The notes under the pieces were generated by a model. That model saw only the letters and a list, made by a program, of their open reading frames with translations, was not told the origin of the DNA and did no database searches. The translations under genes and the position numbers were made by a program. From an uncultured Methanosarcinales archaeon (GTDB lineage Archaea > Nanobdellota > Nanobdellia > Woesearchaeales > GW2011-AR4), in assembly GCA_964438385.1 (NCBI GenBank), contig CAYTKI010000011.1, positions 48,739-112,738 on the forward strand: a stretch of DNA of 64,000 nt, given 5' to 3'. Position 1 is the stretch's first letter. The number at the start of each line of letters is the position of its first letter. Of the stretch, positions 48,070 through 64,000 are shown piece by piece.

Positions 48070-50151
48070 TTAGCCCTTTGAAACAGCAAGCACGACCATG
48101 CCCTGGTTCTGGAATGCCGGGGTGAATTTTTGGCTGGAGATGAGCTCCTGCACTTTCATGTTTGTTGCGTTCATGCCGAATTTGCGCGCGGCCTGCCCAT
48201 CAATGACAACGTATTCATAGTTGTGCTGCGCAGCCCAATCGTGGATTTCCTGTGCTGATAAATTAAAGCCGTTTTTCTCAAAATCCTTTATCTCAGGGCA
48301 CCATGCGCAGGTATATTTGTCAAAGGCAAGTAGAAGCGCATCATTGGAGAACGAAAAGATCGCGGAATTTGTAGGCAATGCCTGGTGCAGCCACAGGTAG
48401 CCGGATATCTCTTCATTTGACGTCCAGAAACCCCCTGGCCCCCATTGCGCCGTATTGACGGCATATTTCTGGACAAATGATGTCTGGATGATCCCATAGC
48501 CAAGCAGTGCGATAAGAATGCTCGAGCCAACAAGCGCGATAGCGGGGTTTGAGATGCTGCGAATTGATGATCGGGCTAAAGTCAAAAGTGTAAAAATACC
48601 TTCCCCGGCAAGAATCGCGACGGGAATTGCAAGCAGCATCCACGCTCGGAAGGGGGAGAGCCGAAGAGCAAAGGGGGAGGCGTTCACGGCGTAAAAGCTG
48701 AAGGCAAGCCAGCCAAGGGAAAGCAAAAGGTGCGTATCGCCAAAATCCTTGTTCTTCCAGCATGAGAATGCGAGCGTGACGAGGAGGAAAAGCATGATTC
48801 CAAGGAAGAATATCAAAAAGAGCTGGTCAGTGAAGAATTCCATGAAAGGGATGCTTCCCGGCTGAAGTTTTGCAAATGTTCTTTTTTCAGGGTATTTGAC
48901 ATAGGACTTCCACAGGATGAGGATGATAAAAAGGAAGAGTGCGGGAAAAACAAGCAGAATTGGCTTCGCGTGCTGGGTTATTTCCGTTCTGTATTTGAAA
49001 AAAAGAACTGTCAGTGAAAACGTGAGAAGAAGAGTGATTACGAGCCCAAGCCCGGTGGGATTATTGATGAGGTTTTGACTCTGCGCAAAGAGAAAATCTG
49101 AAAGGTAATATTGGCGATCCGCAGTGCCGCTTACTGAAATCGCATCAGAGGCATTGGAGAGCCCAAGTCCTGCGAGCGTGCCGGAAAGTCCGTGGCGGAC
49201 TAGTGCAGGAAGCCACCACAGCAAAAAGGAAAGGAATATTCCTAGTAACGCCGCTGCATATTCATTCCAAAGAAACCTGCGCGCAGCAAGTGTCCTGATG
49301 CCTATCCAGATAATGAGAAAAAATCCAAAGTAGGCGCTGTGGCTCGGGGAGGTGGTGAGCGTCGCAAAAATGAGAACTGCCGCACTTATGCCCCACCACT
49401 TATCTTCCCGCATGCGCTCAAGGCAGTAGAATGAAGTGAAGAAAAGAGGCATGGTGAGCGCAATCGCCCAGATGAAATGGCTCATGAACGCAGGCAGGGC
49501 AAAGAGTGCAAACGCGGAAAAAAATGCTTTCTTCGAGCTTGAGGTGAGCTGGCGCACAAGGAAATAGAAGATGATGATGTAGAGGGATATAATGAGCGCG
49601 TTGAAAAACTTAAGCGTCCAGTAGAGGGAGTCATTGGTCTGGTGTATTACTCCCATCACCATATCATACGCGGGTGGATAAGGGTCCATATAGCGAAGCG
49701 ACGCTCCCTCTGGGCGAAACAGTGACTTCTCCAATGAGACATATTTTGCACCGACCGCATGTCCCCAGGGATCGTCATCTTCAAGGTAGGGATAGGCAAA
49801 CGCGCCCTTGTGGTACATAAAAAAGGTGAGGCTAAAGAGAATAAGCATTCCGATGATGTAAGGATTGATGTTGAAGGAAATTGGAACTGCAAGGAGTTTC
49901 TTTGTTTTCCATAATCTGAATCCGAATGCCATGATGATTCCAGTTAATGTGATGGTAAGGAAAATTCGGTAATCGATTGGAACGTGCAGCAGATTGAGTA
50001 GGTATCCTAGCGAGACAAGTCCCCCCAGGCCGATTCCCAGGCGCATAAGATGCCGCTCAAGAAAGCTCTCAGAGTTCTTTGCGGAAAATGTCAGCAGATA
50101 GCCAAGGCCGTAGCAGAGCGCAAGGAAGACGATGATGCTGAGGGGATACAT
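48070..50151 (-). CDS. Polytopic GT-C-fold glycosyltransferase (PMT/ArnT/AglB-like)
   Basis: 693 aa, >14 TM helices, acidic first-loop motif YPYLEDDDPWGHA. Confidence 0.5.
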   Translation of the reverse strand: MYPLSIIVFLALCYGLGYLLTFSAKNSESFLERHLMRLGIGLGGLVSLGYLLNLLHVPIDYRIFLTITLTGIIMAFGFRLWKTKKLLAVPISFNINPYIIGMLILFSLTFFMYHKGAFAYPYLEDDDPWGHAVGAKYVSLEKSLFRPEGASLRYMDPYPPAYDMVMGVIHQTNDSLYWTLKFFNALIISLYIIIFYFLVRQLTSSSKKAFFSAFALFALPAFMSHFIWAIALTMPLFFTSFYCLERMREDKWWGISAAVLIFATLTTSPSHSAYFGFFLIIWIGIRTLAARRFLWNEYAAALLGIFLSFLLWWLPALVRHGLSGTLAGLGLSNASDAISVSGTADRQYYLSDFLFAQSQNLINNPTGLGLVITLLLTFSLTVLFFKYRTEITQHAKPILLVFPALFLFIILILWKSYVKYPEKRTFAKLQPGSIPFMEFFTDQLFLIFFLGIMLFLLVTLAFSCWKNKDFGDTHLLLSLGWLAFSFYAVNASPFALRLSPFRAWMLLAIPVAILAGEGIFTLLTLARSSIRSISNPAIALVGSSILIALLGYGIIQTSFVQKYAVNTAQWGPGGFWTSNEEISGYLWLHQALPTNSAIFSFSNDALLLAFDKYTCAWCPEIKDFEKNGFNLSAQEIHDWAAQHNYEYVVIDGQAARKFGMNATNMKVQELISSQKFTPAFQNQGMVVLAVSKG

Positions 50152-50207
50152 TTCAAAAAATAAGGAAATTGTGTTTAAGAAGTTTTTGCTTTGTGCCTTG
50201 TTCGGAT

Positions 50208-50930
50208 TTATTTTTTCTTCAGGATGAAAACAAAAGTTGGCGTGAAGGGGGTGAGCAGCTTGAGGAGCGGAAATGGTACTAATTTAATTGCTTTCTGGAG
50301 ATAGGGATAGGCATCGACGCCATAGCGCGAGGGGTATTTCATGAGCCGGGGGGTGATATCAACCATATCAAAATGAGGGCGTGCAATCTTTTTAAGGGAA
50401 AGGTAGGATAGAGAATATATGTCCCAGTTTTCTTTTTTCCTTGCCCATCTGATGTAATGCGCTGCAATTTTTGCCGGGAGCCAGGTGATGAAAGGGAGCT
50501 TGTAGTGCGGATCCATCACCCACCACCGATTCGGAGTCGCAAGATACAGGATCCCTTTTTTTTTAAGCACGCGATGAATTTCGGAGAGATGGGTTTTTTG
50601 GTTTGGGATATGTTCAAGGACATGGTTGGAGAGCGCGATGTCAAAAGTATTATTTTTAAAGGGGAGCTTTTCGCTTGGGATTTTCCTGAATTCATAGCCC
50701 TTTTTTGAGGTGCGCTCATCATACAAATCGACGCTCACCGCCTTCTTAGTATGCCTTGCTATCCTTGCGATAATATGGCCGGAGCCGGTTCCGATGTCTA
50801 GCAGCAGGGAGGTTGTGAGATTCTTGTGCTCGCGAAGGACGCTGAGTATTTTCTGCGCTTTTTTATCCCTGCTCGCCCCATCGAGCCGTGCGTGAGAGGT
50901 ATCTGATTTTATCGCCTTTTGTAGTGCCAT
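50208..50930 (-). CDS. Class I SAM-dependent methyltransferase
   Basis: LLLDIGTGSGHI (motif I), DIALSNHVLEHI. Confidence 0.75.
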   Translation of the reverse strand: MALQKAIKSDTSHARLDGASRDKKAQKILSVLREHKNLTTSLLLDIGTGSGHIIARIARHTKKAVSVDLYDERTSKKGYEFRKIPSEKLPFKNNTFDIALSNHVLEHIPNQKTHLSEIHRVLKKKGILYLATPNRWWVMDPHYKLPFITWLPAKIAAHYIRWARKKENWDIYSLSYLSLKKIARPHFDMVDITPRLMKYPSRYGVDAYPYLQKAIKLVPFPLLKLLTPFTPTFVFILKKK

Positions 50931-51044
50931 TGCACCATTTGCATTGTTGTTATTCTTAAAGATTTGCTGAATTGTGTAAAAATCTTCTTTGGAATATTTT
51001 CTTCTGGTAGAAATATATTTAAACCATCCTCCATTGGTCTCCCT

Positions 51045-51935
51045 ATGCTCATCATCATCACCATTCCCGCCTACAATGAAGGCAAGACCCTAGGTGCGAT
51101 CATCCGCGAGATTAAAAGGGTGATGGATGGATCTTCCTATGGCTACAAGTACAAGGTGCTGGTCGTGGATGACGGATCGCAGGACGACACCGCAGAGGTT
51201 GCAAGAAAAGCGGGCGCAGTTGTGCAGTCCCATCCCAGGAATTGCGGGCTTGCTGAGACATTCAGAACAGAAGTGAAAAAGAGTGTTGATCTGGGAGCGG
51301 ATATCATCGTCCATATTGATGCTGACGGCCAATACCTCCCAAAAGAAATTCCCCTTCTTATCAAGGAAGTACAGGAGGGAAATGACCTTGTCCTGGGGAG
51401 CAGGTTCAAGGGGACAATTGAGCACATGTCCCTGACGAAAAGATGGGGTAATAAGGCGTTCTCAAGGGTAATATCTCATATCACCGGCGTTCAGATTTCA
51501 GATGGGCAGACCGGGTTTCGCGCATTTACAAAGGAAGTGGCAAAGCGGGTGGATATCATCTCAAGCCACACCTACACCCAGGAGCAGATTATCAAGGCAG
51601 TCCGTGAGAAATTCAGGGTGAAGGAAGTCCCTATATATTTTGCCAGGCGCAAGGACAAGAGCAGGCTCATCAGTAATCCCTTTGAATACGCGCTCAAGGC
51701 ATGGATAAACATCCTGCGTATCTACCGCGATTACGAGCCGTTGAGGTTTTTTGGCATGAGTGGCGGCTTGATTTTCTGCCTCGGTTTTCTTCTGGGGCTC
51801 TATCTGGTGTACATCCAGTTCTTCGGTGAGGGGGTAAATCGCCATTTCGGACTCATGATGATGGATATCCTCATCCTCAGTATAGGTCTGCAGCTCATCA
51901 TTTTCGGCTTCCTTGCAGATATGCAAAAAAAGTGA
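51045..51935 (+). CDS. GT2 polyprenyl-phosphate glycosyltransferase (Dpm1-like) with C-terminal TM helices, copy 3
   Basis: IIITIPAYNEG...VVDDGSQDDT...HIDADGQY...GSRF, then two C-terminal TM helices. Start set at the in-frame ATG at 51045, which is preceded by ATATATTTAAA. Confidence 0.8.
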   Translation: MLIIITIPAYNEGKTLGAIIREIKRVMDGSSYGYKYKVLVVDDGSQDDTAEVARKAGAVVQSHPRNCGLAETFRTEVKKSVDLGADIIVHIDADGQYLPKEIPLLIKEVQEGNDLVLGSRFKGTIEHMSLTKRWGNKAFSRVISHITGVQISDGQTGFRAFTKEVAKRVDIISSHTYTQEQIIKAVREKFRVKEVPIYFARRKDKSRLISNPFEYALKAWINILRIYRDYEPLRFFGMSGGLIFCLGFLLGLYLVYIQFFGEGVNRHFGLMMMDILILSIGLQLIIFGFLADMQKK

Positions 51936-51939
51936 TCCC

Positions 51940-52581
51940 ATGTTTTTCCTGATCAATGTGCAGATGAGGCGGCAATGGCGCGGCCTGTTTTCAAGGTCTG
52001 ACCGGATTCTTGACATCGGCTGCGGAGATGCCCCAAGGTATCATCGGTATTTCTCAGGTAAAGTTGTGTGCGCAGACATCATCCCGACAAGGGCTTCGCA
52101 TCTTGTGTCCAAAGCAGAATCACTGCCGCTTAGGAGCAGATCCTTTGATGGGATCGTCTGCGTGAATTCCCTCTATTGTTATGGTAATCCTGGGATGGCG
52201 CTTGGGGAGTTCAAGAGGGTTCTCAGAGAGAAGGGCATCCTTGTTCTTGTGACACCGTTCATGTATCCCATCCATGATGCGCCATATGACAAATACCGCT
52301 TTACCAGATATGGCCTCGAAGAGCTGCTGAGAAAGGATTTCATGGTGCAGAAAATGGTTCCTGTGGGTGGCGTCTTTAGCATTCCCTTGGTCCTTGTGCA
52401 TTCCATTCGGAAAGGGGTGCCGCTCCTTGCTCCAAGATCAGCAAGGGTAATAGTTGGACTCTTAAGCACTGTCGTATTTTTTATTCCGGGAATAGTGGCA
52501 GAAATTTTTAGTATCCTTGATGTGCTGGATAGAAGCGGCAGATGGCCGGTGTATTATTTTACCATCGCAAGGAAAAAATAA
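51940..52581 (+). CDS. Class I SAM-dependent methyltransferase
   Basis: ILDIGCGDAP (motif I), DGIVCVNSLYCY. Start taken at the first Met after the upstream stop. Confidence 0.65.
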   Translation: MFFLINVQMRRQWRGLFSRSDRILDIGCGDAPRYHRYFSGKVVCADIIPTRASHLVSKAESLPLRSRSFDGIVCVNSLYCYGNPGMALGEFKRVLREKGILVLVTPFMYPIHDAPYDKYRFTRYGLEELLRKDFMVQKMVPVGGVFSIPLVLVHSIRKGVPLLAPRSARVIVGLLSTVVFFIPGIVAEIFSILDVLDRSGRWPVYYFTIARKK

Positions 52582-52592
52582 GGAAGCATCAT

Positions 52593-53702
52593 CTATCGGG
52601 AATACATCTTGCGTGCATTCTCAACCGTCACAAATTTCACACCTGAGAATTGTTTCACAAAAAGTATAAATTTCTCGATATCGGAAAGTACCTGCGTCTT
52701 CTTTCCATCCTGCATCGTGGCTTCGCAGCTGTGCGTGGTCACGACAAAGGGAAATGGCCTCTCTGAGCGATCTGTTTGGTGATAATACTCAAGGAACGCA
52801 TTGCTGAGCAGGGCAGAATATTGCGGGTCCGCTCGCATGATTTTTCCGAAGAAGGAGAAAGTCGCGATTGGAATCTCCAGGGTCTGTTTTTTTCCTTTTT
52901 GGGTTTTAATTGGTGCTTTTTTCCAGTTATTGCCTTCCCTTGTTGATTGGTAGTCGGTAGTGCTTAATAGCCAGGGATAATGTTCCTTCGCCTTACTCCA
53001 GTCATATTTTCTTCCATCATCCAAATGCCCCTTAATCCCAGGAGTTGCGGAGCTGTCAACCAATAGTCCTGCCTCGTTGATCGCTTTTGCGCCTTCGGTA
53101 TTGAGCGCCCAATTCCCCCAGCGGATACTTGTAATTTTTTCACCATTCTTCCCAATAAGGTTCGTATTCTCTTTTCCTAAGTGTGTTCCAATAATTTTCC
53201 TGGAGGTATCGATAAATTCAAGCAATTGCTTTTCATCATGGAAAAAGCAGCTCGTTGCGGGGAATGACTGTCCCAATTCTTTTTGAAGCGCCTTATCGGA
53301 ATCAGGATGGAGATGCAATCCGATCTCATGGCCATCCCTAAGAAGTCCAAAAAGTTCAGCCATAATCCTCTTGTAATCTTCTCCTTGAGCTGAAAAGCAG
53401 TGCGTAGAGAGAAAAAACGTCGCCTCCACCCCATGCCTCTTGAATAGTTCCCGTAGGTTTTTGATGCCAGCGTAGTATCCCAAATAGGCATCCGGCGCTT
53501 CCTTCTGCCACACTCTTCTCTGGTTCACGGCAACATAGCCGGATTCAGTATCGATTGTGAGGGAAATCAAAAAGGGTTTTTTGTTTGGTTTCTTTGGTGA
53601 TTTTTTTATGTAAGGGATGGAGACGCCAAAAGAAAGGCCGCGCGCAATTGCCCCTCCAAGCTTGGTCATGGAAAAGCGATAGGCGAGCAGCTTAAGGCTC
53701 AT
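52593..53702 (-). CDS. Polysaccharide deacetylase-like (divergent CE4/NodB-like) protein
   Basis: LTIDTESG (TFDDG-like), HEIGLHLH (His motif), RWGNW. Divergent, hence modest confidence. Confidence 0.45.
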   Translation of the reverse strand: MSLKLLAYRFSMTKLGGAIARGLSFGVSIPYIKKSPKKPNKKPFLISLTIDTESGYVAVNQRRVWQKEAPDAYLGYYAGIKNLRELFKRHGVEATFFLSTHCFSAQGEDYKRIMAELFGLLRDGHEIGLHLHPDSDKALQKELGQSFPATSCFFHDEKQLLEFIDTSRKIIGTHLGKENTNLIGKNGEKITSIRWGNWALNTEGAKAINEAGLLVDSSATPGIKGHLDDGRKYDWSKAKEHYPWLLSTTDYQSTREGNNWKKAPIKTQKGKKQTLEIPIATFSFFGKIMRADPQYSALLSNAFLEYYHQTDRSERPFPFVVTTHSCEATMQDGKKTQVLSDIEKFILFVKQFSGVKFVTVENARKMYSR

Positions 53703-54907
53703 CTGAGCACCTCCCCATACACTTCAGCGAATTTCTTTGAGACAAATTTCCATGAGTAGTTCTTCTTGACGGACTCCCGCGCGCACTTTCCAAGCACCTT
53801 CGCTTTTTTGGGGCTGTAGAGGAGAGAGGAGATGGCATGTGAGAGCTCCTTTGGATTTTTTTGCTCAATAAGAATGCCATTCTTCCCATTGGAAACAACT
53901 GTTGGGATGCCGCCGACATTTGTCCCGACAACCGCGCAGCCAGAGGCCATGGCTTCCAAAAGTGAGAGTCCTAAGGCCTCTGTTCCGGTCTCATTCGAAA
54001 GGGCTGGCAAAACAAACACATCGCAGATATTATGAAAATAGGCAATCTCATCCTGCTGCAATGCGCCGAGAAATTTTACCGCGCCATTCACTTTTTTTTC
54101 AGTAATTTTCTCCTCAAGTTCCTGCCTGTAAGGCCCATCACCTATGATTAGCAAGAGGGAGTTCTTGTGTTTCTTAAGGATTGCAGGCATGGCCTCGATG
54201 AGATACTGCACTCCCTTCTGATCGCTCAGTCTGCCAACAAAGAGGATAATCTTCTTGCCTTTGTATTCGGGCGGCTTTGCAATCTTTCTTGGCTTGAAGC
54301 AATCGGTATTGACACCCATGGGGATCAGGATGGTCTTTTTCTTCGCTTCTGGAAATCTTCTCAGCAGCTCTTCCTGTGTTGCCGCACTGTTCACCGTTAT
54401 CAAATCCGCCTTCTTCACTACGTTTTTCTGCAATTTCAAAAATATGCTATTTTTCAATGGAAATAAATCACTCCCATGGATGGTTACAATGAGCGGTTTT
54501 CCCGTTAGTCTCTTGAGCCACGTTCCAACAACTCCTTGGGGGAGTATCCAATGCGCGTGGATAAACTCGATGTTTTTTTCCCCCATTATATACCACGCAG
54601 AAAAGAACTCGGAAATAATCAAAAGAGGCAATTGCATTTTTGCAAGGAAGCTCTTCCCCATATTAGGGATAATCCCGCCGCCATAGCACAGCTTCTGTAG
54701 CGATTCCGGCTTGAAATAGGAAAAGCGGTGCACATCAAGATTTCCCATAACCTCCTGCTTCTTCGCTCCAGGATGGTGAGGCGCAAGGATCGTCATAGCA
54801 TAGGAAGAAGTAAGTCGTTCAGAAAGTTCAAGGACAAATCGTGGCGTGGTGTCGTTCACCCAGCGCGGAAAGGTCGTTGCCAGCGCAAGAACCCTTGGTT
54901 TTGCCAT
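53699..54907 (-). CDS. GT4-family glycosyltransferase
   Basis: GT-B fold. ...ILFVGRLSDQKGVQYLIEA...LLIIGDGP...VFVLPALSNETGTEALGLSLLEAMASGCAVVGT (EX7E). Confidence 0.85.
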   Translation of the reverse strand: MAKPRVLALATTFPRWVNDTTPRFVLELSERLTSSYAMTILAPHHPGAKKQEVMGNLDVHRFSYFKPESLQKLCYGGGIIPNMGKSFLAKMQLPLLIISEFFSAWYIMGEKNIEFIHAHWILPQGVVGTWLKRLTGKPLIVTIHGSDLFPLKNSIFLKLQKNVVKKADLITVNSAATQEELLRRFPEAKKKTILIPMGVNTDCFKPRKIAKPPEYKGKKIILFVGRLSDQKGVQYLIEAMPAILKKHKNSLLLIIGDGPYRQELEEKITEKKVNGAVKFLGALQQDEIAYFHNICDVFVLPALSNETGTEALGLSLLEAMASGCAVVGTNVGGIPTVVSNGKNGILIEQKNPKELSHAISSLLYSPKKAKVLGKCARESVKKNYSWKFVSKKFAEVYGEVLR

Positions 54908-56602: not shown

Positions 56603-56770
56603 GAAGTTGCCTGTTACTCATAATTTATTTTTAAGTCTATTGCATATAACGGTCCATAGAGAAAACGCGAAATGTTTTTAAACGAGGCGGCGTTCTTTGG
56701 GAAGGGTGAATGCGTGGATTCCATCGACAAATTCAAGGATTCAGAAGGGAGAATTAGCAGGGAAAATATC

Positions 56771-57211
56771 ATGAAGATTATCCCATACAACGAGCATTTC
56801 CTTTTCATAGATGAAGTGGTCTCTTTGGATAAGAAGAGGATTGTCGCAAGAAAGAAAATTACGGGAAAAGAAGATTTCCTCAAAGGTCATTTTGTGGATT
56901 TTCCAATTACCCCGGGGGCATTGATTGTCGAAGGGCTTGGCCAGGCAGCGACTCTACTCGCACGCTACAGTATTCCAAATCACCAGAAAAAAGATGTGCT
57001 CGCATACAAGATCCGCGATGCGAAATTCATGGCTCCGGTGCTTCCGGGCAGTGAGATGACCTATGAGGTGGTCTCGCAGGGGCAGATGGAGAAATTTGCC
57101 ATGATGCAGGGCAAGGTATTTGTGGATGGGAATCTCACTGCGGAAGCGTTCATGATGCTTGCGATAGTCGATCGTGATGCGTTTAGGGGTAAGCACTCCT
57201 CCGCGAAATAA
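56771..57211 (+). CDS. fabZ: 3-hydroxyacyl-thioester dehydratase (FabZ-like hot-dog fold)
   Basis: IIPYNEHFLFIDEVVSLD...GHFVDFPITPGALIVEGLGQAA matches the FabZ IPHRyPFLLiD...GHFPg.PvmPGvL..EamaQ block. Confidence 0.75.
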   Translation: MKIIPYNEHFLFIDEVVSLDKKRIVARKKITGKEDFLKGHFVDFPITPGALIVEGLGQAATLLARYSIPNHQKKDVLAYKIRDAKFMAPVLPGSEMTYEVVSQGQMEKFAMMQGKVFVDGNLTAEAFMMLAIVDRDAFRGKHSSAK

Positions 57212-57225
57212 AAGATTGTTCTTCC

Positions 57226-58350
57226 ATGATGCATGTAAAAGGAATTGGAATGACGAAATTTGGAATCCATAGTAAGACAACCCATGAGCTGTGCTATGAG
57301 GCGGCAATGGAGGCATTCGATGATGCAAATATAACTCCGGACCAGATAGATGCCGTTGTCATCTCCCGTAGTGATAGCGCAATTGATGGGGAGCGGCAGC
57401 GCCTCTTTCCCTCTCTTATCAGCAGCATCCTGCAGAAAGAGGGAATCCCCATGGTGCATGTGATTGCCGCGTGCGCGGGAGGCGGAGCTGCATTGTGGAA
57501 TGCAGTGCACTTGGATTATGGGAATGTACTTGTGCTTGGGGTTGAGAAGCTCACACCTCCTCCGACGCCGCAGGTGACTGAAGACCTCATGACTGCATCT
57601 GAGCACCTCTACGAGCAGTCAGAAGGGATGAATTTTCCAGCCCAGAATGCACTGATAGCGCAGCAGTACATGCGCAGGTATGGGGTTTCCACTGATGATC
57701 TTGCATTGGTTGCCCTAAAAAACCATGAAAATGCAAACCTTAACCCAAAAGCAAGATTTTACGGAAAAACTGTGACGCTCGCCATGATCAAAAAATCACC
57801 CATCATCTGCTCCCCCTTGCGCCTCTTTGACTGCAGTATCTCCGTGGATGGCGCGGCTGCCGTAATAGTCACCAAGGAAAAAACAGATATTGAAATCGCT
57901 GGATCTGCATTGTACGCTGATCGCCTTCCTGCCTTTGAAGCGCCGGATATGACCTCATGGGAAGGGACAAAACTTGCTGCGGAGCAGGCATATAGGGAAG
58001 CAGGAATCACTCCAAAGGATCTTGATTGTGTGGAATTGCACGACGCGTTTACTTCTGTTGAATTGATGGCGTATGAGGATCTTGGCTTGTGTGGAAAAGG
58101 CGAGGGGAAAAAACTCATCCGCAAAGGACATACAAAGCTCAATGGAGCGCTTCCAGTCAACATGTCTGGAGGCCTCAAGGCAAAAGGGCATCCCATTTCC
58201 GCGACAGGTATATCGCAAATTTATGAGATCGTAAAGCAGTTGCGCAATCAGGCAGGAAAACGCCAGGTGGATGGAGCGAAAATCGGAATCGCGCATAATG
58301 TGGGCGGCGTTGGCAGTTCAGTGACTGTCCATGTGCTCAAAAAAGTATAG
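57226..58350 (+). CDS. Archaeal-type thiolase (acetyl-CoA C-acyltransferase, SCP-x/thiolase fold)
   Basis: GIGMTKFG, active-site VIAACAGGG, C-terminal HNVGG. The family that partners DUF35 proteins. Confidence 0.8.
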   Translation: MMHVKGIGMTKFGIHSKTTHELCYEAAMEAFDDANITPDQIDAVVISRSDSAIDGERQRLFPSLISSILQKEGIPMVHVIAACAGGGAALWNAVHLDYGNVLVLGVEKLTPPPTPQVTEDLMTASEHLYEQSEGMNFPAQNALIAQQYMRRYGVSTDDLALVALKNHENANLNPKARFYGKTVTLAMIKKSPIICSPLRLFDCSISVDGAAAVIVTKEKTDIEIAGSALYADRLPAFEAPDMTSWEGTKLAAEQAYREAGITPKDLDCVELHDAFTSVELMAYEDLGLCGKGEGKKLIRKGHTKLNGALPVNMSGGLKAKGHPISATGISQIYEIVKQLRNQAGKRQVDGAKIGIAHNVGGVGSSVTVHVLKKV

Positions 58351-58363: not shown

Positions 58364-59830
58364 GTGAATGACATGATTATCAGATGGATATGCGAGATAT
58401 GCAGTAAGAAATGGATATATCCCGTGCAGAAATGCCTCTATTGCAAAGGACCAATAGTAAAGCAGAAGGGCACAAAGGTGAAAATCATTGGCATCACCAA
58501 AGTGAATATCCCCTCACCAATGCACCCAATCATTCCCTATAATATTATCCTTCTCGAGGATGAGTTTGGCAACCGCATGCCTAAAAAAACAATGAAAGAA
58601 TACCACATTGGGGATGCCTACCAGCTCGAGCAGGCAAAGACAGATGGCGCAGTTATCATTTGCAAGGTAAAGTATGATATTGAGGAAGCATTGCAAGAAT
58701 CCCTTGGCCTTTTGAGATCAGTTGATTTGGCGCCGGATGATAAGGTGCTCATTAAGGTAAGTTGCATTGAGTCAGTATATCCATACCAGGCGGTAACGAC
58801 AAACCCCGTGCTTCTTGAATCCATCATCCATATTCTGAGGGGGAGGGGCATCTCTAATATTATTATTGGGGAGCAGGCAATGCTCGGTAATGACACCATG
58901 GACGCAGCTTCAAAGGCAGGAATCCTTGAAGTCTGCAAGAAGGCGGATATTGCATTCGTTGATTTAGGCAAGGCAGAGTATGTGGAGAAGAAGCATGGCA
59001 CAACAACCTTTAGCATTGCGAAAGATGCAGTGGAGAGAAAAATCATTGATGTGCCCGTCCTAAAGACCCATTCCCAACTTGGCGTTGCAGGGGCCATGGA
59101 GAATTTGCTTCGTGTATGCTCCGCAGAAACGCAGAAGAATATGTATGCTGAAGGCATTGAGAAATCACTTGCAAAACTTGCGCTGGTCGCAAGGCCCATA
59201 CTCATCATCGGAGATGCGACAAATGGGCTTCAGGGCAATGGCCCTACTTCCCTTGGCGAGCCGGCGTTTCTGAATATGCTGCTTGTGGGAAAAGACATTG
59301 TTTCAGTTGACCGAATATTTTCTGAGCTGGGGATGTTTTCCTTGCCGGAACATGTCAGGGAAGCCGGGATTCTTGGGGCTGGTGAATCTGATCTCAAGAA
59401 AATTGAAGTGGTAAATTGTGAAGTGAATGCGGCAAAGTACTCCCTCAAGAAACCGGAAAAAGTGGTAACAGCTCATCCCAACATCCGGCTGGTTGATGGC
59501 CAGGCAGATCCTTATGTGCTCAATACTGCACTCAGGATGGCGCAGAAGCTGGTTGGAATTGCCGGGGAAGAAGTGCATATCGTGGTGGGCTCCCATCTTT
59601 CATCGGAGATGGTTGAGGGCAAGCAGCGCTTGGTGCTATACGGCCGTGACGCCATCAGGAAGGGAAAGGAGATAGGTATCCAGGCGGTCGCTGAGCTTAC
59701 TGAAGAGATGCCGGATATCCAAAAAGTCGTGTTCTTGAAAAGCATACTTGAGAATCCAGACAAGAAGAAACTTGGTATCGCGGACGTCTTCAAGGCAAAG
59801 CTTGCGATGTTCTCGCAGAAAAAGAAATGA
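58364..59830 (+). CDS. Fusion protein: N-terminal DUF35 (Zn-ribbon + OB-fold) and C-terminal DUF362-like domain
   Basis: N-terminus CEICSKKWIYPVQKCLYCKG...KVKIIGITKV is the DUF35 rubredoxin-like ribbon plus OB fold. From ~aa 120, DDKVLIKVSCIESVYPYQAVTTNPVLLESIIHILRGRG fits the DUF362 kVlIKPN...tThP.vv.avv motif. 488 aa in total. Confidence 0.55.
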   Translation: MNDMIIRWICEICSKKWIYPVQKCLYCKGPIVKQKGTKVKIIGITKVNIPSPMHPIIPYNIILLEDEFGNRMPKKTMKEYHIGDAYQLEQAKTDGAVIICKVKYDIEEALQESLGLLRSVDLAPDDKVLIKVSCIESVYPYQAVTTNPVLLESIIHILRGRGISNIIIGEQAMLGNDTMDAASKAGILEVCKKADIAFVDLGKAEYVEKKHGTTTFSIAKDAVERKIIDVPVLKTHSQLGVAGAMENLLRVCSAETQKNMYAEGIEKSLAKLALVARPILIIGDATNGLQGNGPTSLGEPAFLNMLLVGKDIVSVDRIFSELGMFSLPEHVREAGILGAGESDLKKIEVVNCEVNAAKYSLKKPEKVVTAHPNIRLVDGQADPYVLNTALRMAQKLVGIAGEEVHIVVGSHLSSEMVEGKQRLVLYGRDAIRKGKEIGIQAVAELTEEMPDIQKVVFLKSILENPDKKKLGIADVFKAKLAMFSQKKK

Positions 59831-59867: not shown

Positions 59868-60602
59868 ATGCTGACTGGAAAAATTGCATTGGTCACCGGC
59901 TCCTCACGGGGCATTGGAAAGGCAATTGCCCTTGAGCTTGCAAAGAAAGGGGCAGATGTCGCAATTAATTATAGCAGTGATGAGAATGGCGCGCGGGCAG
60001 TTGCCGAGGAAATTGAAAAGATTGGGAGAAAGGCGATTGTGGTCAAGGCGAATGTTTCCAACACAGAGCAGACAAAAAAGATGGTGCAGGAAATATGTGA
60101 GAAACTTGGAAAAATCGACTTGCTGGTCAATAATGCGGGAATCGCACGCGATAAGACCTTAAAGAACATGAGTGTAGAGAAATGGAACTTAGTGATTGAC
60201 ACCAACCTCACTGGCACCTTCAATGTCACCAAGAGCGTGCTTGAAGTTATGCCTGAGGGCGGGAGCATTGTCAACATTTCTTCTGTAGTGGGGCTCAACG
60301 GCAATTTCGGGCAGACAAACTATTCTGCATCCAAGGCAGGCATAATCGGATTCACCAAATCATTGGCAAAAGAGGTGGCGAAGAGAAGGATAAGGGTGAA
60401 CGCAGTCGCTCCTGGATTTATCGAGACAGAGATGACAAAAGGCATCCCGTTCATCAGGAAGCTCATCGTGAAGAGATTCATTCCGCTTGGGCGGTTGGGA
60501 GCAGCAGAGGATGTTGCGCACTTAGTGGCATTTTTACTTTCTGAGGATGCAGGATACATCAGCGGCCAAGTCGTGAGAATAGATGGGGGGTTGATGTTCT
60601 GA
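59868..60602 (+). CDS. fabG: 3-oxoacyl-thioester reductase (FabG-type SDR)
   Basis: KIALVTGSSRGIGKAIA...NNAG...SSVVG...YSASKAG...APGFIETEM. Classical FabG motifs. Confidence 0.85.
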   Translation: MLTGKIALVTGSSRGIGKAIALELAKKGADVAINYSSDENGARAVAEEIEKIGRKAIVVKANVSNTEQTKKMVQEICEKLGKIDLLVNNAGIARDKTLKNMSVEKWNLVIDTNLTGTFNVTKSVLEVMPEGGSIVNISSVVGLNGNFGQTNYSASKAGIIGFTKSLAKEVAKRRIRVNAVAPGFIETEMTKGIPFIRKLIVKRFIPLGRLGAAEDVAHLVAFLLSEDAGYISGQVVRIDGGLMF

Positions 60603-61735
60603 TGTTTGTTAGGGGAGTTGGCATGACCTCATTTGATTTTGATCAAACACCCTCATTTGAGAGAATTTCACAGTGCGTGTCTGAAGCGCTTGAGGATGCG
60701 GAACTTGGGCTTGAGCAGCTTGATGCAGTTTTCATATCAAACACAGAGACAGGAGGGAATAGCGAGCGCCAGCGCCACATGTCTCCTCTCGTAAGCAGTC
60801 TGTTTGAGAGGAGGATCCCAATAATCAATCTCCCATGGGGATGTGGTGGTGGTGGGGTTGCTTTATGGGATGCGCTGCGGTTCTTGATGGCCACGCCAAA
60901 GGAAAATGTTCTCGTTATCGGCTGCGATAAAGTGGTGGGAAACACTTCAGAGCGGCTCACAGATGAGATCCTAATGGGCGGTGAGAGAAAATATGAGCAG
61001 ATTGAGGGAGTTGTCTTTCCCGCCCAGAACGCGCTTGTGGCGCAGCAGTACATGCTCAAGTTCAATGCTGTGGAGGGGGATTTTGCGCTTGTTGCCCTGA
61101 AAAATCACGAGAATGGGTTTCTCAATCCGAAAGCAAGATTTTACAATAAAAAAGTAACTCTTGAGATGATTGAGAAGTCCCAGGTTGTTGCCTCTCCTCT
61201 TCGCCTCTTTGACTGCAGTATCTCGTGTAATGGGGCTGCTGCTGTAGTGGTAAGTAGGGAAAAAAGTGATATAGAGATTGTGGGGAGTAGCGTCGCAACA
61301 AGCAATCTCTCAACATTTGAGAGAAAAAATATGCTCTCTTGGGAATCAACAAAGATTGCCGCGAAGAACGCGTACTCACAGGCAGGGATTAGCCATGAGG
61401 AAGTGGATATTGCGGAGCTTCATGATGCTTTTACTCCTGTTGAAATCATTTCGTATGAGGATCTTGGATTTTGCGGGCCTGGAGAAGGCATTCAGCTTAT
61501 CAGGGAAGGCGCGACAAAGCTGAACGGAAAACTGCCGGTAAACACTTCAGGCGGGCTCAAGGCGCGTGGGCATCCTATTAGTCCGACCGGCATCGCGCAG
61601 ATATATGAGATTGCATGCCAGATGAGAGGAGATGCCGGCAAGAGGCAGATTGAGAAGCCAACCTATGGGCTGGCCCAGAATATTGGAGGGGCGGGAAGCA
61701 TGGCTGCCGTGCACATCCTGAAAAACAATGGCTAA
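60602..61735 (+). CDS. Thiolase-fold protein, paralog of 57226..58350
   Basis: GVGMTSFD, WGCGGGG (Cys retained), QNIGGAG. ~40-45% identical to the upstream thiolase by eye. Confidence 0.7.
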   Translation: MFVRGVGMTSFDFDQTPSFERISQCVSEALEDAELGLEQLDAVFISNTETGGNSERQRHMSPLVSSLFERRIPIINLPWGCGGGGVALWDALRFLMATPKENVLVIGCDKVVGNTSERLTDEILMGGERKYEQIEGVVFPAQNALVAQQYMLKFNAVEGDFALVALKNHENGFLNPKARFYNKKVTLEMIEKSQVVASPLRLFDCSISCNGAAAVVVSREKSDIEIVGSSVATSNLSTFERKNMLSWESTKIAAKNAYSQAGISHEEVDIAELHDAFTPVEIISYEDLGFCGPGEGIQLIREGATKLNGKLPVNTSGGLKARGHPISPTGIAQIYEIACQMRGDAGKRQIEKPTYGLAQNIGGAGSMAAVHILKNNG

Positions 61736-62804
61736 AGGAATGCTTTCCGGGATACGGGTACTTGACTGTTCTTCTCTTATTCCGGGGCCGTTTTGCGCGA
61801 TGATGCTTGCTGATCTTGGTGCGGATGTCACCAAGGTGGAGAGTCCAAAGGGTGATGGTTTACGCTCCTTTGGGACAATCAATGGGGTGAGTCCTTATTT
61901 TGTGGTCATAAACAGGGGCAAGAAAATCGTGGTGCTCAACCTCAAGACAAAGGAAGGAAAAGGCAAGCTTCATCAGCTCGTTAAGGGAACAGATGTCATA
62001 ATTATCGGGACAAGACCGATGAAAGCAGCAGATCTTGGCCTTGCATACTCACAAATAAGGAAAATGAACAAGAGGATTGTGTATTGCTCAATCACTGGCT
62101 ATGGGATGCGTGGAAGAAAGAGCAAATTGGCAGGACATGACATAAATTATCTCGCCCATAGCGGAATGCTCCCTGCGCTTTCAGGAAATTCAGTTTCAGT
62201 ACCAGGGGTGCAGCATGCGGATCTTGCCGCAGGAACGCTTGCGTGTTCTGTGATACTCGCGGCGCTTTTCTCCAGGCAAAAAACAGGGAAAGGTGTATGT
62301 CTGGACCTTAGTATGGCGGATGCCACTTCCTATTTTTTTGGGATGTATCTTTCGCATGACTCTCTTGCCGGAATGGATAGATTTCTTGCAGGAGCATGCC
62401 CATGCTACAATGTGTACAAGACCAAGGATCATAAGTGGGTTGCTCTCGGTGCCGTAGAGGAAAAATTTTGGAAAGCGTGGTGCGGTGCGTCAAAAATGAT
62501 TTCATTGGAAAAGAAGCAATGGTCGATGGAGAAAGATGTAATTGAGAAAGTGCGTGATGTGTTCATGAACAAGACTGCAAAAGAGTGGGTGATGCTCGGT
62601 AATCTTCATGATTTTTGCTGCGAAGAAGTTCTGGATGCAAAAAGCGCCGTCTCCTTGGGCATGGAGCAAAAAAAATGGGAGGAGGTGCAAAGAATACCTG
62701 TTCCTAGTCTGGGATTTGGTGTTTTTGGGATTCCTGTTTCACAACCATCATGGAAAAAAAAGCCAACTTTCCTCAACTCAGGAATAGAGCGGGAGGGTAA
62801 GTGA
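61728..62804 (+). CDS. Family III CoA-transferase (CaiB/BaiF / alpha-methylacyl-CoA racemase family)
   Basis: GIRVLDCSSLIPGPFCAMMLADLGADVTKVE is the hallmark N-terminal block of CoA-transferase family III. Confidence 0.85.
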   Translation: MAKGMLSGIRVLDCSSLIPGPFCAMMLADLGADVTKVESPKGDGLRSFGTINGVSPYFVVINRGKKIVVLNLKTKEGKGKLHQLVKGTDVIIIGTRPMKAADLGLAYSQIRKMNKRIVYCSITGYGMRGRKSKLAGHDINYLAHSGMLPALSGNSVSVPGVQHADLAAGTLACSVILAALFSRQKTGKGVCLDLSMADATSYFFGMYLSHDSLAGMDRFLAGACPCYNVYKTKDHKWVALGAVEEKFWKAWCGASKMISLEKKQWSMEKDVIEKVRDVFMNKTAKEWVMLGNLHDFCCEEVLDAKSAVSLGMEQKKWEEVQRIPVPSLGFGVFGIPVSQPSWKKKPTFLNSGIEREGK

Positions 62805-62809: not shown

Positions 62810-64000
62810 ATGGAAATCAAAAGACATTCCTGGAAACCGACAGCGCCAATCTCAAAAGGAGCGAGCGCGTACCATGATGCAGTCTGCAACGCCAAGTATT
62901 ATGTGACTATTCTTGATGAGCTCATGATGAACGCTGCTCAGAAGATCGTGGAAGGTCAGATCGTTGTTGATTTTGGCGCAGGAACAGGAGTTTCTGCTCT
63001 TCGGCTCTTAAAGCAGGCATCCGATCATTTTGATTTGTGGATGGTGGACAATTCTCCTGCGTGGCTCGGCAAGGCCTATGAGATTCTGCACGATCGCAAG
63101 GGCACTGATTTTTTTATCGTTGGGAAAAAAGGAGAGACTCATGCGACGCTCTCCCAGACCATTGGGGAAGGTATTGCGGACCACGTGGTCTGCGCAAATA
63201 CCATCCACCTCATTCCAGATATTGCAGAGGTATTCGAGGGGGTCTCATGCGCGCTTAAGGAGGGGGGGATGTTTTTTGTCGAGAGTGGAAATGTCCTCTA
63301 TGACGATACTCCAAAAGGAGCGCTTCTGGTCGATGACACCGTCAAGCGGGTACATGATATCGCCCTGGACATGGTGAGGTATAATCCTTCATTCTCATCC
63401 TATAAGGCGGATCTCGATGCGGATATCAGGAAGTATGCGGCTCAGAGAAAATTTGTCTTTCCTGATCCTCGGCCGTTAAGCTTCTATTGTGAAATGCTCC
63501 AAAAGTCCGGGTTTGTAGTTGAGCGCTCCTATGCAAAGCTTTTCAAGGTTGAATATGGGGATTGGCTTACATTTCTCCGCGTTAAGCGGCTGCAGGCAGG
63601 AATCCTTCCCGAAATCGGCGGCAATGATCCATCCAATAAGGAAGAGGAGGATCGTGACAATCTCATTTCATTGGCCACCCATAAGCTCTTTGACGAATTG
63701 CGCGCTGAGAATCCGCTTGCTGACAAGCAGGGGTTCACTATTGAGGTAGTGTATATCATCGCCCACAAAAAAGAGCGCACGCTTGCCGGAAAAAAAGCTC
63801 TGGTCACTGGCGCATCACGCGGCATTGGAAGGGCAATCGCACTTGAATTGGCTTCCGAAGGGGCAGAGATCATCATTAACTACAATAGCAGCAAAGAGAA
63901 GGCGCAGGAAGTTGTGGAGGAGATTGCTTCGATTGGCTCGCGCGGAATCGCGGTCAAAGCGGATGTAGCAATCCATTCTGATGTGACGCATCTTGCTGCG
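62810..64000 (+). CDS. Didomain protein: class I SAM methyltransferase-like domain fused to an SDR (FabG-like ketoreductase) domain; 3' end beyond window
   Basis: Hand translation from the ATG at 62810 is open through 64000 with no stop, checked codon by codon. VVDFGAGTGVSALRL (MTase motif I) is followed ~330 codons later, in the same frame, by KKALVTGASRGIGRAIALELASEGAEIIINYNSS (SDR TGxxxGxG). Missing from the ORF track because it runs off the edge. Confidence 0.65.
   Translation, partial: MEIKRHSWKPTAPISKGASAYHDAVCNAKYYVTILDELMMNAAQKIVEGQIVVDFGAGTGVSALRLLKQASDHFDLWMVDNSPAWLGKAYEILHDRKGTDFFIVGKKGETHATLSQTIGEGIADHVVCANTIHLIPDIAEVFEGVSCALKEGGMFFVESGNVLYDDTPKGALLVDDTVKRVHDIALDMVRYNPSFSSYKADLDADIRKYAAQRKFVFPDPRPLSFYCEMLQKSGFVVERSYAKLFKVEYGDWLTFLRVKRLQAGILPEIGGNDPSNKEEEDRDNLISLATHKLFDELRAENPLADKQGFTIEVVYIIAHKKERTLAGKKALVTGASRGIGRAIALELASEGAEIIINYNSSKEKAQEVVEEIASIGSRGIAVKADVAIHSDVTHLAA

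Follow-up and report, generated by a model that had tools for sequence, protein, structure and literature searches.

A methyltransferase-FabG fusion in a carrier-protein-free gene cluster of a Woesearchaeal archaeon hints at an undescribed route to methyl-branched acyl chains

A methyltransferase (MT) followed, from N to C terminus, by a ketoreductase (KR) is found in the cMT-KR segments of polyketide synthases (PKSs) such as CurJ, LovB, PksCT and PsoF. The cMTs of PsoF, CurJ and PksCT possess an extra N-terminal alpha-helical lid and an inserted helix over the core (PMC9821293). Anammox bacteria encode a stand-alone SAM-dependent methyltransferase, AmxMT1 (PDB 8HD2; PMC9821293), within their FASII (ladderane) cluster; it carries an alpha-domain at its N terminus, acts together with an ACP and has no FabG fused to it. 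For archaea, a preprint describes a fatty-acid synthase complex of Sulfolobus acidocaldarius in which a ketothiolase, a DUF35 protein, a ketoacyl-CoA reductase and a MaoC dehydratase are combined with an enoyl-CoA reductase (bioRxiv 10.1101/2024.07.05.601840); it mentions neither DPANN archaea nor a methyltransferase. Two papers have noted that Woesearchaeota possess lipid genes of bacterial type, namely GpsA, PlsC and FabG/FabZ (PMC6431249, PMC10936187). Among the titles, abstracts and passages covered by our literature searches on a link between Woesearchaeota methyltransferases and fatty acids, none described an MT-FabG fusion.

We analysed a 64,000-nt stretch of DNA of a Woesearchaeal DPANN archaeon (the window), which ends within a gene that joins an MT to a FabG-type SDR (Table 1). 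As the initial annotation had claimed, this frame is continuous and free of stops from its ATG up to the window edge; 397 stop-free codons would arise in random sequence with a probability of roughly (61/64)^397, about 5e-9. A protein search identified the full-length product as P0001, a protein of 567 aa that is 100% identical to the window ORF over 397 aa and is labelled merely '3-oxoacyl-ACP reductase FabG' in public records. Its gene, including the stop codon that had been sought downstream, is present on two independently assembled Logan contigs, L001 (ERR3478687) and L002 (ERR4904393), and the DNA of both showed 0 mismatches to the window in the 1191 bases concerned. Because the DNA is identical in two independent assemblies, the fusion is not a frameshift artefact and no stop is hidden between its domains, which disposes of the reservation that re-sequencing might split it into two genes. 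The MT-SDR fusion ORF is thus confirmed as real. Since MT and FabG are separate in most relatives, an assembly or sequencing artefact of two ordinary genes might still be suspected; this is extremely improbable, as the window and both assemblies would all have to share one error, and the same architecture recurs: about 19 loci at species level have it, as do about 45 clusters of proteins that are 560-625 aa long. What had been called a free-standing didomain is, in view of these separate genes, better termed a Rosetta-stone fusion.

Table 1. Position of the fusion gene, its parts and the genes upstream of it (window coordinates)
Feature	Position	Strand	Basis
FabZ/ApeI-like hot-dog 3-hydroxyacyl dehydratase, first gene of the conserved block	56672..57211	+	Pfam FabA
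Thiolase paralogue 1 (SCP-x/archaeal type)	57226..58350	+	Pfam, NCBIfam, alignment, synteny
DUF362 protein, 488 aa	58364..59830	+	Pfam DUF362 at aa 128-319; synteny
Second, stand-alone FabG, 244 aa from ATG 59868	59868..60602	+	TIGR01830 309.9 vs 297.75
Thiolase paralogue 2 (SCP-x/archaeal 'Thiolase_C_1' type)	60602..61735	+	Pfam, NCBIfam PRK06064, alignment
Alpha-methylacyl-CoA racemase (AMACR/MCR)-like protein, CoA-transferase family III, 358 aa	61728..62804	+	Pfam CoA_transf_3
Shine-Dalgarno-like GGGAGGG run	62791..62797	+	12 nt upstream of ATG; read from sequence
MT-FabG fusion gene, 5' 1191 nt (397/567 codons)	62810..64000	+	Open frame running off window edge
Class I SAM-dependent methyltransferase domain, aa 1-322, orphan Woesearchaeal family	62810..63775	+	Pfam; motifs
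Interdomain linker start	63776..63790	+	Secondary structure of full-length AF2 model; sequence
FabG-type 3-oxoacyl reductase domain, N-terminal 70 residues	63791..64000	+	adh_short/KR from aa 328

The TGA of the upstream gene leaves an intergenic gap of 5 nt before the ATG of the fusion gene. All motifs quoted in the initial annotation were recovered in the fusion protein, with VVDFGAGTGVSALRL at aa 52-66, ALVTGASRGIGRAIALELA at aa 330-348 and NYNSS at aa 357-361. P0001 as a whole contains an MT and an SDR only. In the AF2 model of the full-length protein, beta7 of the MT (308-320) and beta1 of the SDR (329-332) are separated by a linker of about 8 residues, approximately aa 321-328 (KE-RTLAGK). 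The top 50 Foldseek matches of this model included no solved MT-KR didomain and were all stand-alone FabG-type reductases. No tRNA genes were present within the window, and the taxonomic placement relies on the labels of homologues and loci.

The adh_short/KR match of the SDR has an E-value of 3.5e-13, which is above the gathering cut-off, and the SDR is a single FabG-like domain of 245 aa that begins 8 residues after the MT. It scored 315.7 bits, compared with a cut-off of 297.75 for the TIGR01830 FabG equivalog. The classical pattern TGxxxGxG, NNAG and Ser...YxxxK appears in P0001 as TGASRGIG (NADPH-binding), NNAGI and S...YAAAK, of which the NNAG, the Ser and the YAAAK lie beyond the window, in aa 398-567. 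Identity to bacterial FabG structures was 44-54% with TM scores of 0.85-0.90, B. anthracis FabG reaching 54% and 0.90. These motifs and scores make the fused SDR a genuine 3-oxoacyl reductase of the type II FabG class. The top partial match had suggested a FabL/FabI-type enoyl reductase, an assignment that we rejected for the full domain, which is a FabG equivalog with Y-x3-K. The fused reductase differs from bacterial FabG in bearing a 322-aa N-terminal MT domain and, since no ACP was seen in the cluster, its physiological substrate is probably a CoA ester.

The MT domain displays the hallmarks of a class I SAM-dependent methyltransferase, namely a seven-strand Rossmann-like core with two SAM-binding elements, the glycine-rich motif I (DFGAGTG, aa 54-60) and an acidic residue where beta2 ends; VDNS is found at aa 79-82 and ANTIHL at aa 129-134. 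Matches to Methyltransf_12, 31, 23, 25 and 11 at aa 36-163 (E 2e-9 to 2e-5) were all above the gathering cut-offs, with Methyltransf_12 as the best model. A helical cap, inserted after beta5 and between beta6 and beta7, resembles that of small-molecule methyltransferases. The family to which the domain belongs is a small orphan group that is almost confined to Woesearchaeota/Nanoarchaeota MAGs. Since the SAM-binding residues D54, G56, G58, T59, G60 and D80 are invariant in fused as well as unfused members, the MT domain is probably catalytically active. PKS C-MTs are characterised by a His-Glu catalytic dyad and by a Tyr that lines the substrate tunnel. At the sequence level, H22, H133, H182, Y198 and Y226 of the MT family are invariant and Y249 is nearly so, while position 158 is Glu in the window protein versus Gln in the family consensus.

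The initial annotation likened the fusion to the cMT-KR didomains of modular PKSs, and this comparison held in part. The two share their domain order, a match of the MT core to Methyltransf_12 and the proposed logic, in which a beta-keto thioester would be alpha-methylated and then reduced. Moreover, the weak matches of the MT family profile to PDB sequences were enriched in PKS C-MTs (6 of the best 18: CurJ, DisA, AprA MT2, PsoF, PksCT and LovB). The fusion, however, stands outside any megasynthase, in an archaeal host and without KS, AT or ACP, with thiolases, FabZ and DUF362 as its neighbours; its reductase is a type II FabG lacking the psi-KR subdomain, its MT lacks the PKS-type N-terminal alpha-helical lid, and its substrate is presumably a CoA thioester. 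The structural comparison proposed earlier also told against a PKS-type MT, because only a core of about 190 residues could be aligned to PKS cMTs, versus 250-266 residues for small-molecule MTs of the FAMT, SABATH, OxaG and TmtA types. Identity to AmxMT1 was 13% over 193 aligned residues. Identity to the carboxyl O-methyltransferases (BioC, Tam, mycobacterial FAMT, SABATH) was 9-16%; no cut-off of these families was approached, and neither fusion nor synteny with a ketoreductase and a thiolase occurs in any of them.

The genes upstream of the fusion bear out the thioester-chemistry neighbourhood noted before. The FabZ-like protein scores just under the NCBIfam FabZ cut-off, with an ApeI-like match in relatives. 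Thiolase paralogue 2 has kept its catalytic Cys and its position in the cluster. The DUF362 gene is always sandwiched by the two thiolase genes, and its product starts with a zinc-ribbon-like CxxC...CxxC motif; a domain scan of its N- and C-terminal flanks yielded neither DUF35 nor another domain, no PDB relative was found, and no paper that pairs DUF362 with thiolase came up in a full-text search. The stand-alone FabG is a called 244-aa gene in L001 and is present in some relatives only. No ACP, KS or AT was matched among the cluster genes of the window and the relatives' loci. A conserved 75-aa ORF beside BirA was considered as a possible ACP and rejected, as it encodes a two-helix membrane protein. 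The S. acidocaldarius complex resembles the block in building chains on CoA esters with thiolases and independently of ACP, and in combining an SDR and a hot-dog dehydratase with a small partner protein of the zinc-ribbon type. The Woesearchaeal block differs in its FabZ-type rather than MaoC-type dehydratase, its two thiolase paralogues, the replacement of DUF35 by DUF362, the added methyltransferase and the absence of an enoyl reductase from the cluster.

Comparison of relatives revealed the MT gene directly 5' of the FabG gene in about 50 species-level loci, in the conserved order FabZ-thiolase-DUF362-thiolase-MT-FabG. This block adjoins genes for acyl-CoA carboxylase (ACC), GpsA and two PlsC proteins, with 4HBT and a desaturase also in the setting. 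The setting is a primary-lipid operon of a DPANN archaeon (ACC, GpsA, PlsC) and not a secondary-metabolite cluster. MT and FabG are fused in about 19 loci and separate, though abutting or overlapping, in at least 30; fused forms occupy at least 3-4 places of the MT NJ tree, and the fusion apparently arose in at least three events. Such a recurrent fusion is a Rosetta-stone link that assigns the MT family to the 3-oxoacyl-reduction step. In CPR (candidate-phyla) bacteria, MT orthologues occur in glycan clusters with a non-orthologous PhaA-type thiolase, a reductase and N-acyltransferases. The return of the thiolase, KR and MT trio in this second, unrelated context places the probable MT substrate at the 3-oxo/3-hydroxyacyl-CoA step.

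The gene immediately upstream of the fusion had been described as a CoA-transferase/racemase-family gene and can be specified as AMACR-like. Its product has the family III fold, a length of about 360 aa and all three catalytic residues, and is predicted by homology to be a racemase. The active-site residues of M. tuberculosis MCR are His126, Asp156 and Glu241 (PMC10967716). The best PDB relatives were MCR structures (8rmw/1x74; E 1.5e-39, 360-365 aa), to which AGHDINY (His126/Asp127), Asp156 in 'HAD' and Glu241 in 'AVEEKF' aligned. Every orthologue of the AMACR-like protein carries the GHD[IL]N[YF] motif, and nearly all of them have kept the downstream Asp. Since this enzyme class acts only on 2-methylacyl-CoA, such a neighbour supports C2-methyl chemistry. 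An AMACR-like gene lies directly upstream of the MT in 12 of the 41 lipid-context loci that have upstream sequence, the window included.

Methylation coupled to beta-keto reduction, as suggested from the start, is the reading that best fits these data. In our preferred version, to which we assign a probability of about 40%, the fusion combines two enzyme activities and serves an acyl-chain (lipid) pathway based on thiolases: the MT domain C2-methylates a thiolase-made 3-oxoacyl-CoA and the fused FabG then reduces the product. With the zinc-ribbon/DUF362 protein as a possible scaffold, the thiolases would condense acyl-CoA units to 3-oxoacyl-CoA, probably at the level of acetoacetyl-CoA. The MT would place a methyl group from SAM on the acidic C2 (alpha) carbon, and FabG, using NAD(P)H and probably NADPH as reductant, would reduce the resulting 2-methyl-3-oxoacyl-CoA. 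To complete the cycle, the FabZ-like dehydratase would be joined by some enoyl reductase encoded outside the cluster; where present, the AMACR-like racemase would interconvert the 2-methyl epimers. The methyl-branched acyl-CoA (e.g. a 2-methylbutyryl primer or a branched chain) may then pass to the neighbouring PlsC-type acyltransferases, which would act on sn-glycerol-3-phosphate made by GpsA. The gene order thiolase-MT-KR parallels this proposed order of reactions. Against C2-methylation, the top match of the MT family profile is BelI (E 2e-4) and no cMT, the best weak NCBIfam matches of MT relatives are the carboxyl O-MTs BioC and Tam, the AMACR-like gene is missing in about two-thirds of the loci, and the cluster has no enoyl reductase. 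The carboxylase next to the block might also provide methylmalonyl/propionyl units as an alternative source of methyl branches.

PKS O-MT-KR modules yield 3-methoxy products, and mycobacterial FAMT, PhcB and SABATH enzymes methylate carboxyls. The MT could likewise be an O-methyltransferase near the KR step, acting on the FabG-made 3-hydroxyl to give 3-methoxyacyl-CoA or on the carboxyl of a (3-hydroxy) fatty acid. This we consider unlikely: a 3-methoxy group would leave the FabZ-like dehydratase of the same cluster unable to act, carboxyl methylation requires a free acid yet a 4HBT thioesterase is encoded in just 9 of 51 loci, the AMACR-like neighbour is left unexplained, and none of the 32 listed profile matches to solved structures bears a PKS O-MT name. 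An N-methylating role is suggested by the best single-sequence PDB match, the phosphoethanolamine N-MT PMT-2 (E 0.04, with nothing better), and by the high rank of PMTs among the Foldseek matches. Neighbours include a Pyr_redox_2 flavoprotein (9 loci) and a desaturase (3 loci), as might be expected if the MT, together with an FAD oxidoreductase, methylated unsaturated chains at mid-chain like BfaA/BfaB. Such a place elsewhere in lipid metabolism, be it in head-group or mid-chain methylation or as a scaffold without catalysis, comparable to the pseudo-methyltransferase in animal FAS, is nonetheless improbable, because it explains neither the fusion to a 3-oxoacyl reductase nor the trio in glycan clusters; a CMAS signal (PF02353) was absent from the Pfam matches of the MT at E<=0.01 and of P0001 at E<=5, and the invariant SAM motifs contradict a pseudo-enzyme.

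The biotin genes around the cluster, which abuts BirA, BioY, BCCP and biotin carboxylase and in L005 and L050 also BioD-like genes (with, in L005, a possibly BioF-like aminotransferase of class I/II), raise the idea that the MT initiates synthesis of the biotin precursor pimelate. Like BioC, it would O-methylate malonyl-CoA, the thiolases, FabG and FabZ would elongate this to a pimeloyl thioester, and a dicarboxyl-CoA (e.g. glutaryl-CoA) would come from the homologue of family III CoA-transferases, as in BioZ systems. In keeping with this, BioC (TIGR02072) is the top, sub-threshold NCBIfam match of the relatives P0102, P0129 and P0134, and the CoA_transf_3 protein has succinate-glutarate CoA-transferase as its best NCBIfam match. 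We regard this role as quite improbable, because the BioC scores (21 bits for the window MT, 24-43 for relatives) lie far under the cut-off of 184.95 and cover the Rossmann core only, the CoA_transf_3 protein agrees with racemases in its length and in the racemase-specific His126, and the orthologues in CPR glycan clusters lack a biotin or FAS context. Moreover, the BioC step is not consecutive with the KR step, which leaves the recurrent MT-KR fusion unexplained, and biotin genes are expected beside a biotin-dependent carboxylase anyway, BioY implying biotin uptake. Yet less probable is a catabolic block for beta-oxidation of 2-methyl-branched (e.g. isoprenoid-derived) acyl-CoAs, in which the role of the MT would be unrelated or regulatory. 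Its families do match those of peroxisomal AMACR, MFE-2 (SDR plus hot-dog hydratase) and SCP-x thiolase: as in peroxisomal and mycobacterial 2-methyl-branched acyl-CoA metabolism, an AMACR-like racemase that has all its catalytic residues stands beside SCP-x-type thiolases, an SDR and a hot-dog hydratase/dehydratase. Those systems, however, are degradative and have no methyltransferase, whereas the setting of the window is anabolic, with tight synteny to ACC, GpsA, PlsC and a desaturase; the block has no acyl-CoA dehydrogenase/oxidase, its SDRs are FabG equivalogs and as such NADPH-dependent anabolic enzymes by family, and both the MT and its repeated fusion to a reductase would go unexplained.

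The fusion gives a step assignment to an otherwise unannotatable methyltransferase family, and the block (FabZ, two SCP-x-type thiolases, zinc-ribbon/DUF362, orphan MT, FabG and, in some loci, an AMACR-like gene) is a concrete, testable candidate pathway for acyl-chain building without ACP or KAS. C-methylation of 3-oxoacyl-CoA, if confirmed, would make the MT a CoA-dependent equivalent of the PKS C-methyltransferases that works as a stand-alone enzyme, useful for engineering branched products via reverse beta-oxidation and a new element in the lipid-divide debate. A fuller scenario, rather unlikely to hold in all its parts, is that Woesearchaeales make methyl-branched acyl-CoA de novo with an ACP-free thiolase synthase, branching by the orphan C-MT (often fused to its FabG), stereo-editing by the AMACR-like enzyme and bacterial-type G3P/PlsC ester lipids as products, the same trio supplying branched hydroxyacyl groups for CPR glycans. 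In that scenario, archaea on the 'wrong' side of the lipid divide would have a third route to branched lipid tails, besides isoprenoid synthesis and the branched-primer/methylmalonyl routes. Among distant MT relatives, cluster members are named just 'SAM-dependent methyltransferase' or 'UbiE'. The very long ones (P0130, P0137, P0180, P0186 and P0189) were considered as PKS/NRPS, which Pfam ruled out; they are concatenations of unrelated metabolic enzymes, with AceK, PEPCK/TIM and methylmalonyl-CoA mutase plus MeaB plus carboxylase among their domains.

A ribosome-binding-like GGGAGGG run lies 12 nt 5' of the ATG of the methyltransferase (MT)-FabG gene at the window edge, and the TGA of the preceding gene ends at 62804. 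A protein database holds the full-length product, P0001 (567 aa), with 100% identity across all 397 window-encoded residues, and its gene, stop codon included, is present on two independently assembled contigs (L001, from ERR3478687, and L002, from ERR4904393) whose DNA is identical to the window across 1191 of 1191 bases. Because of this identity, the continuous MT-SDR ORF of the initial annotation is real, and no stop or frameshift, which that annotation had allowed for, is hidden between the domains; the probability that the fusion is an artefact is negligible. Methyltransf_12 was the best of the class I methyltransferase models in Pfam (E 1.7e-9, aa 36-163) and adh_short/KR matched from aa 328 onward (E 3.5e-13), all MT and SDR matches lying above their gathering scores. 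The full-length AF2 model (pTM 0.79) would be compatible with a defined inter-domain arrangement. Public database records name P0001 simply FabG.

The SDR domain is a straightforward member of the type II FabG family. Its score against TIGR01830, the FabG equivalog model, is 315.7 bits (cut-off 297.75); it carries the TGASRGIG, NNAGI and S…YAAAK motifs, and shares 44-54% identity with bacterial FabG crystal structures at TM values of 0.85-0.90. A PKS ketoreductase (KR) was rejected since the psi-KR subdomain is lacking.

By sequence, the closest solved relative of the MT domain reaches only E 0.04. The family is small: among 1.84 billion representatives, an exhaustive phmmer search found only 108 proteins at E<=1e-3, of which 9 reach E<=1e-30. 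In a confident AF2 model from 35 family members (pLDDT 92, pTM 0.89) the core has seven strands, with two short helices at the N terminus; a helical cap is inserted at two points, one after beta5 and the other between beta6 and beta7. Foldseek returned a flat list of small-molecule MTs (AtmM/RebM, YcgJ, 4VPMT2, OxaG, GtmA, PMT, JHAMT, BioC and UmaA). Matches of the family profile to PDB sequences were weak, the best being BelI (E 2e-4), and PKS C-methyltransferases (cMTs) accounted for 6 of the 18 best distinct sequences (CurJ, 1.8e-3; DisA, 2e-3; AprA MT2, 9e-3; PsoF, PksCT and LovB). NCBIfam gave core matches only, all sub-threshold; for the relatives, BioC and Tam ranked first. By homology the domain should be an active MT of class I from an orphan family, but homology does not by itself fix the methylated atom.

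The MT homologues come nearly all from Candidatus Woesearchaeota/Nanoarchaeota MAGs. Many MAGs labelled 'uncultured Methanosarcinales archaeon' (including those of loci L009, L012 and L016) display the typical Woesearchaeal synteny of RadA, rpS2, GpsA and PlsC, and 'uncultured Gammaproteobacteria bacterium' MAGs (L044, L059, L062) carry the glycan-context MT found in CPR MAGs. Since these contigs share known MT-locus synteny, both labels are probably placeholders or errors.

Mapping 25 reference proteins on 68 loci by tblastn revealed a conserved lipid-context order: (carboxyltransferase, BCCP, BioY, 4HBT, BirA, biotin carboxylase), then FabZ/ApeI-like – thiolase – DUF362 – (FabG) – thiolase – (AMACR-like or Pyr_redox flavoprotein, the latter on the other strand) – MT – FabG, then TRAM – LigT – rpS2, followed on the opposite strand by GpsA – PlsC – PlsC – RadA. 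Some loci add a fatty-acid desaturase gene. A FabG gene directly follows the MT in every lipid-context locus with downstream sequence: the two form one ORF of 560-602 aa in ~19 species-level loci and are separate, with gaps of a few nt or overlaps of <=11 nt, in at least 30. A quick, rough NJ tree built on the MT domains groups the window's MT with one large fused clade and scatters other fused members (L042, L025, L004/L058) among unfused MTs, which argues for at least three fusion events. MT-FabG is thus a recurrent Rosetta-stone fusion, and the functional link that it provides is solid and useful in an archaeal lipid pathway that is little understood and whose key chemistry is hypothetical.

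Coordinates of features in the window, in P0001 and at related loci
Feature	Location	Strand	Remarks
Glycan-type cluster	window 42312-54907		GT4 and GT2 glycosyltransferases, two small class I methyltransferases, formyltransferase
FkbH-like/phosphatase protein	window 46055-47758		in glycan-type cluster
Thiolase paralogues	window 57226-58350, 60602-61735
DUF362 protein	window 58364-59830	+	480-488 aa including orthologues in L003-L054
Extra stand-alone FabG	window 59868-60602
AMACR-like gene	window 61728-62804		directly upstream of MT
MT-FabG fusion gene, 5' part	window 62810-64000	+	ATG start, 397 open codons to window edge
MT domain	P0001 aa 1-322
Interdomain linker	P0001 …AHKKE-RTLAGK…		~8 residues
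SDR domain	P0001, C-terminal to linker		complete
75-aa membrane protein	L003 885-1112, L005 2271-2498, L007 2202-2429	-
Biotin carboxylase beside block	L003 1928-3796, L005 3718-5634, L007 3704-5626	-	622-640 aa
Glycan-context MTs	~10000-10950 in each of L043, L044, L055, L059, L062, L063

The DUF362 gene is always wedged between both thiolase genes. Its product has an N-terminal zinc-ribbon-like CxxC...CxxC motif (…WICEICSKKWIYPVQKCLYCKG…), no PDB relative and no Pfam match outside aa 128-319, and may be a counterpart of DUF35 as scaffold for archaeal thiolases. The nucleophilic Cys (…ACAGGG…) and GHP are intact in both window thiolases, which read HDAF where SCP2-type thiolases carry HDCF; if that norm applies, the second catalytic Cys would be Ala in both.

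The best solved relatives of the gene product upstream of the fusion are M. tuberculosis alpha-methylacyl-CoA racemases (E 1.5e-39). At 358 aa it resembles racemases (360-365 aa) in length, most CoA-transferase matches listed being ~385-456 aa. Since 2-methylacyl-CoA is the substrate of AMACR-type enzymes, this gene points to a putative C2-methyl intermediate. Its AGHDINY aligns to His126/Asp127, Asp156 is kept and a Glu aligns to Glu241; His126, Asp156 and Glu241 are active-site residues of MCR (PMC10967716). GHD[IL]N[YF] is present in every AMACR-like orthologue at MT loci, and the downstream Asp in nearly all. The gene lies directly upstream of the MT in 12 of the 41 loci with upstream sequence.

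A distinct MT orthologue clade (42-51% identity) occurs within glycan clusters of CPR bacteria (Daviesbacteria, Microgenomates, Patescibacteria) and some Woesearchaeota. There the MT adjoins a FabG/PhaB-like SDR and a thiolase of classical PhaA type, which is not orthologous to the Woesearchaeal lipid-block thiolases; hexapeptide or GNAT acyltransferases, DegT aminotransferases and glycosyltransferases are also encoded. These clusters suggest decoration of sugars with (methylated) 3-hydroxybutyryl-type N-acyl groups. Because thiolase, 3-oxoacyl reductase and MT are common to both contexts, the MT substrate would be a short 3-oxo- or 3-hydroxyacyl-CoA. One Woesearchaeal contig, JACPBQ010000004.1, holds two MT paralogues (L054 and L056), one in a lipid block and the other elsewhere, grouping in the tree with the glycan-context clade.

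Our tentative reading, at a probability of about 0.4, is that the thiolase would make a 3-oxoacyl-CoA, the MT domain would methylate it at C2, and the fused FabG domain would then reduce it, the methyl-branched acyl-CoA feeding an ACP-free lipid pathway. CoA rather than ACP would be the carrier; no ACP or KAS gene was found among neighbours at the mapped MT loci. The gene order thiolase, MT, KR matches the reaction order condensation, alpha-methylation, reduction, and C2 is the obvious carbon nucleophile of a 3-oxoacyl thioester, as established for PKS cMTs. The same C2-methylation has been proposed for AmxMT1 (PMC9821293).

Against C2-methylation, the MT cap is architecturally nearer to carboxyl, N- and S-MTs than to PKS cMTs, and O-methylation of the 3-hydroxyl or of a carboxyl group is an unlikely alternative. 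The BioC, Tam and BelI signals also speak against C2; BioC-like initiation of pimelate synthesis is nevertheless very improbable, the NCBIfam signals falling below threshold. Some other lipid-related or a non-catalytic role is improbable; the SAM-binding residues D54, G56, G58, T59, G60 and D80 are invariant in stand-alone and fused MTs. Most loci lack the AMACR-like gene and the block lacks an enoyl reductase, both points against C2-methylation, and we give very little credence to a catabolic branched-chain module, the block lying beside GpsA and PlsC. The rest of the probability is kept for functions outside this list.

In mode of working, C2-methylation coupled to reduction would most resemble the PKS cMT-KR pair or, alternatively, AmxMT1 plus FabG, although P0001 belongs to neither family. 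The PKS likeness of the initial annotation would thus hold for mode of working but does not hold for membership, three defining features of PKS cMT/KR domains being absent. GpsA/PlsC in Woesearchaeota (PMC6431249) and FabG/FabI/FabZ in DPANN (PMC10936187) are already noted in the literature, and the characterised Sulfolobus FAS complex comprises thiolase/DUF35/SDR/MaoC and enoyl reductase, without a methyltransferase or mention of DPANN (bioRxiv 10.1101/2024.07.05.601840). In the literature searched, neither the MT-FabG fusion nor the MT family is described, and no paper treats the Woesearchaeal block as one unit. We rate P0001 as a putative thioester methyltransferase, acting in trans and joined to a ketoreductase, that is new in family, fusion architecture and lineage.

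Several observations concern the surroundings. The highly conserved 75-aa ORF, considered as an ACP, was ruled out as such: it is a two-helix membrane protein with no family match, lying between BirA and either BioY or 4HBT. A typical biotin carboxylase is ~180 aa shorter than the one beside the block, for which BCCP and a fused carboxyltransferase have genes of their own; its substrate may be acetyl- or propionyl-CoA. The thiolases of L005, a TARA contig (6290-7414 and 8865-10001), share one sequence from residue ~150 to the C terminus and differ in their N-terminal thirds, which reflects gene conversion of recent date or else an artefact of assembly. A glycan-type cluster lies upstream of the window's lipid block, and its large ORFs at 48070-50151 and 52593-53702 have no Pfam match. 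ARAGORN found zero tRNA genes in the whole 64 kb; G+C is 47%. Very long proteins among the phmmer relatives were rejected as PKSs: the predicted proteins P0130, P0137, P0180 and P0189 (2461-4508 aa) contain an MT-like domain amid unrelated central-metabolism enzymes; they may stem from merged gene models, or may be unusual fusions of a eukaryote-like kind. P0180 combines AprA-MT2-like, MeaB, methylmalonyl-CoA mutase, B12-binding, MT, biotin carboxylase and carboxyltransferase parts, an intriguing acyl-CoA carboxylase/mutase company for the MT-like domain.
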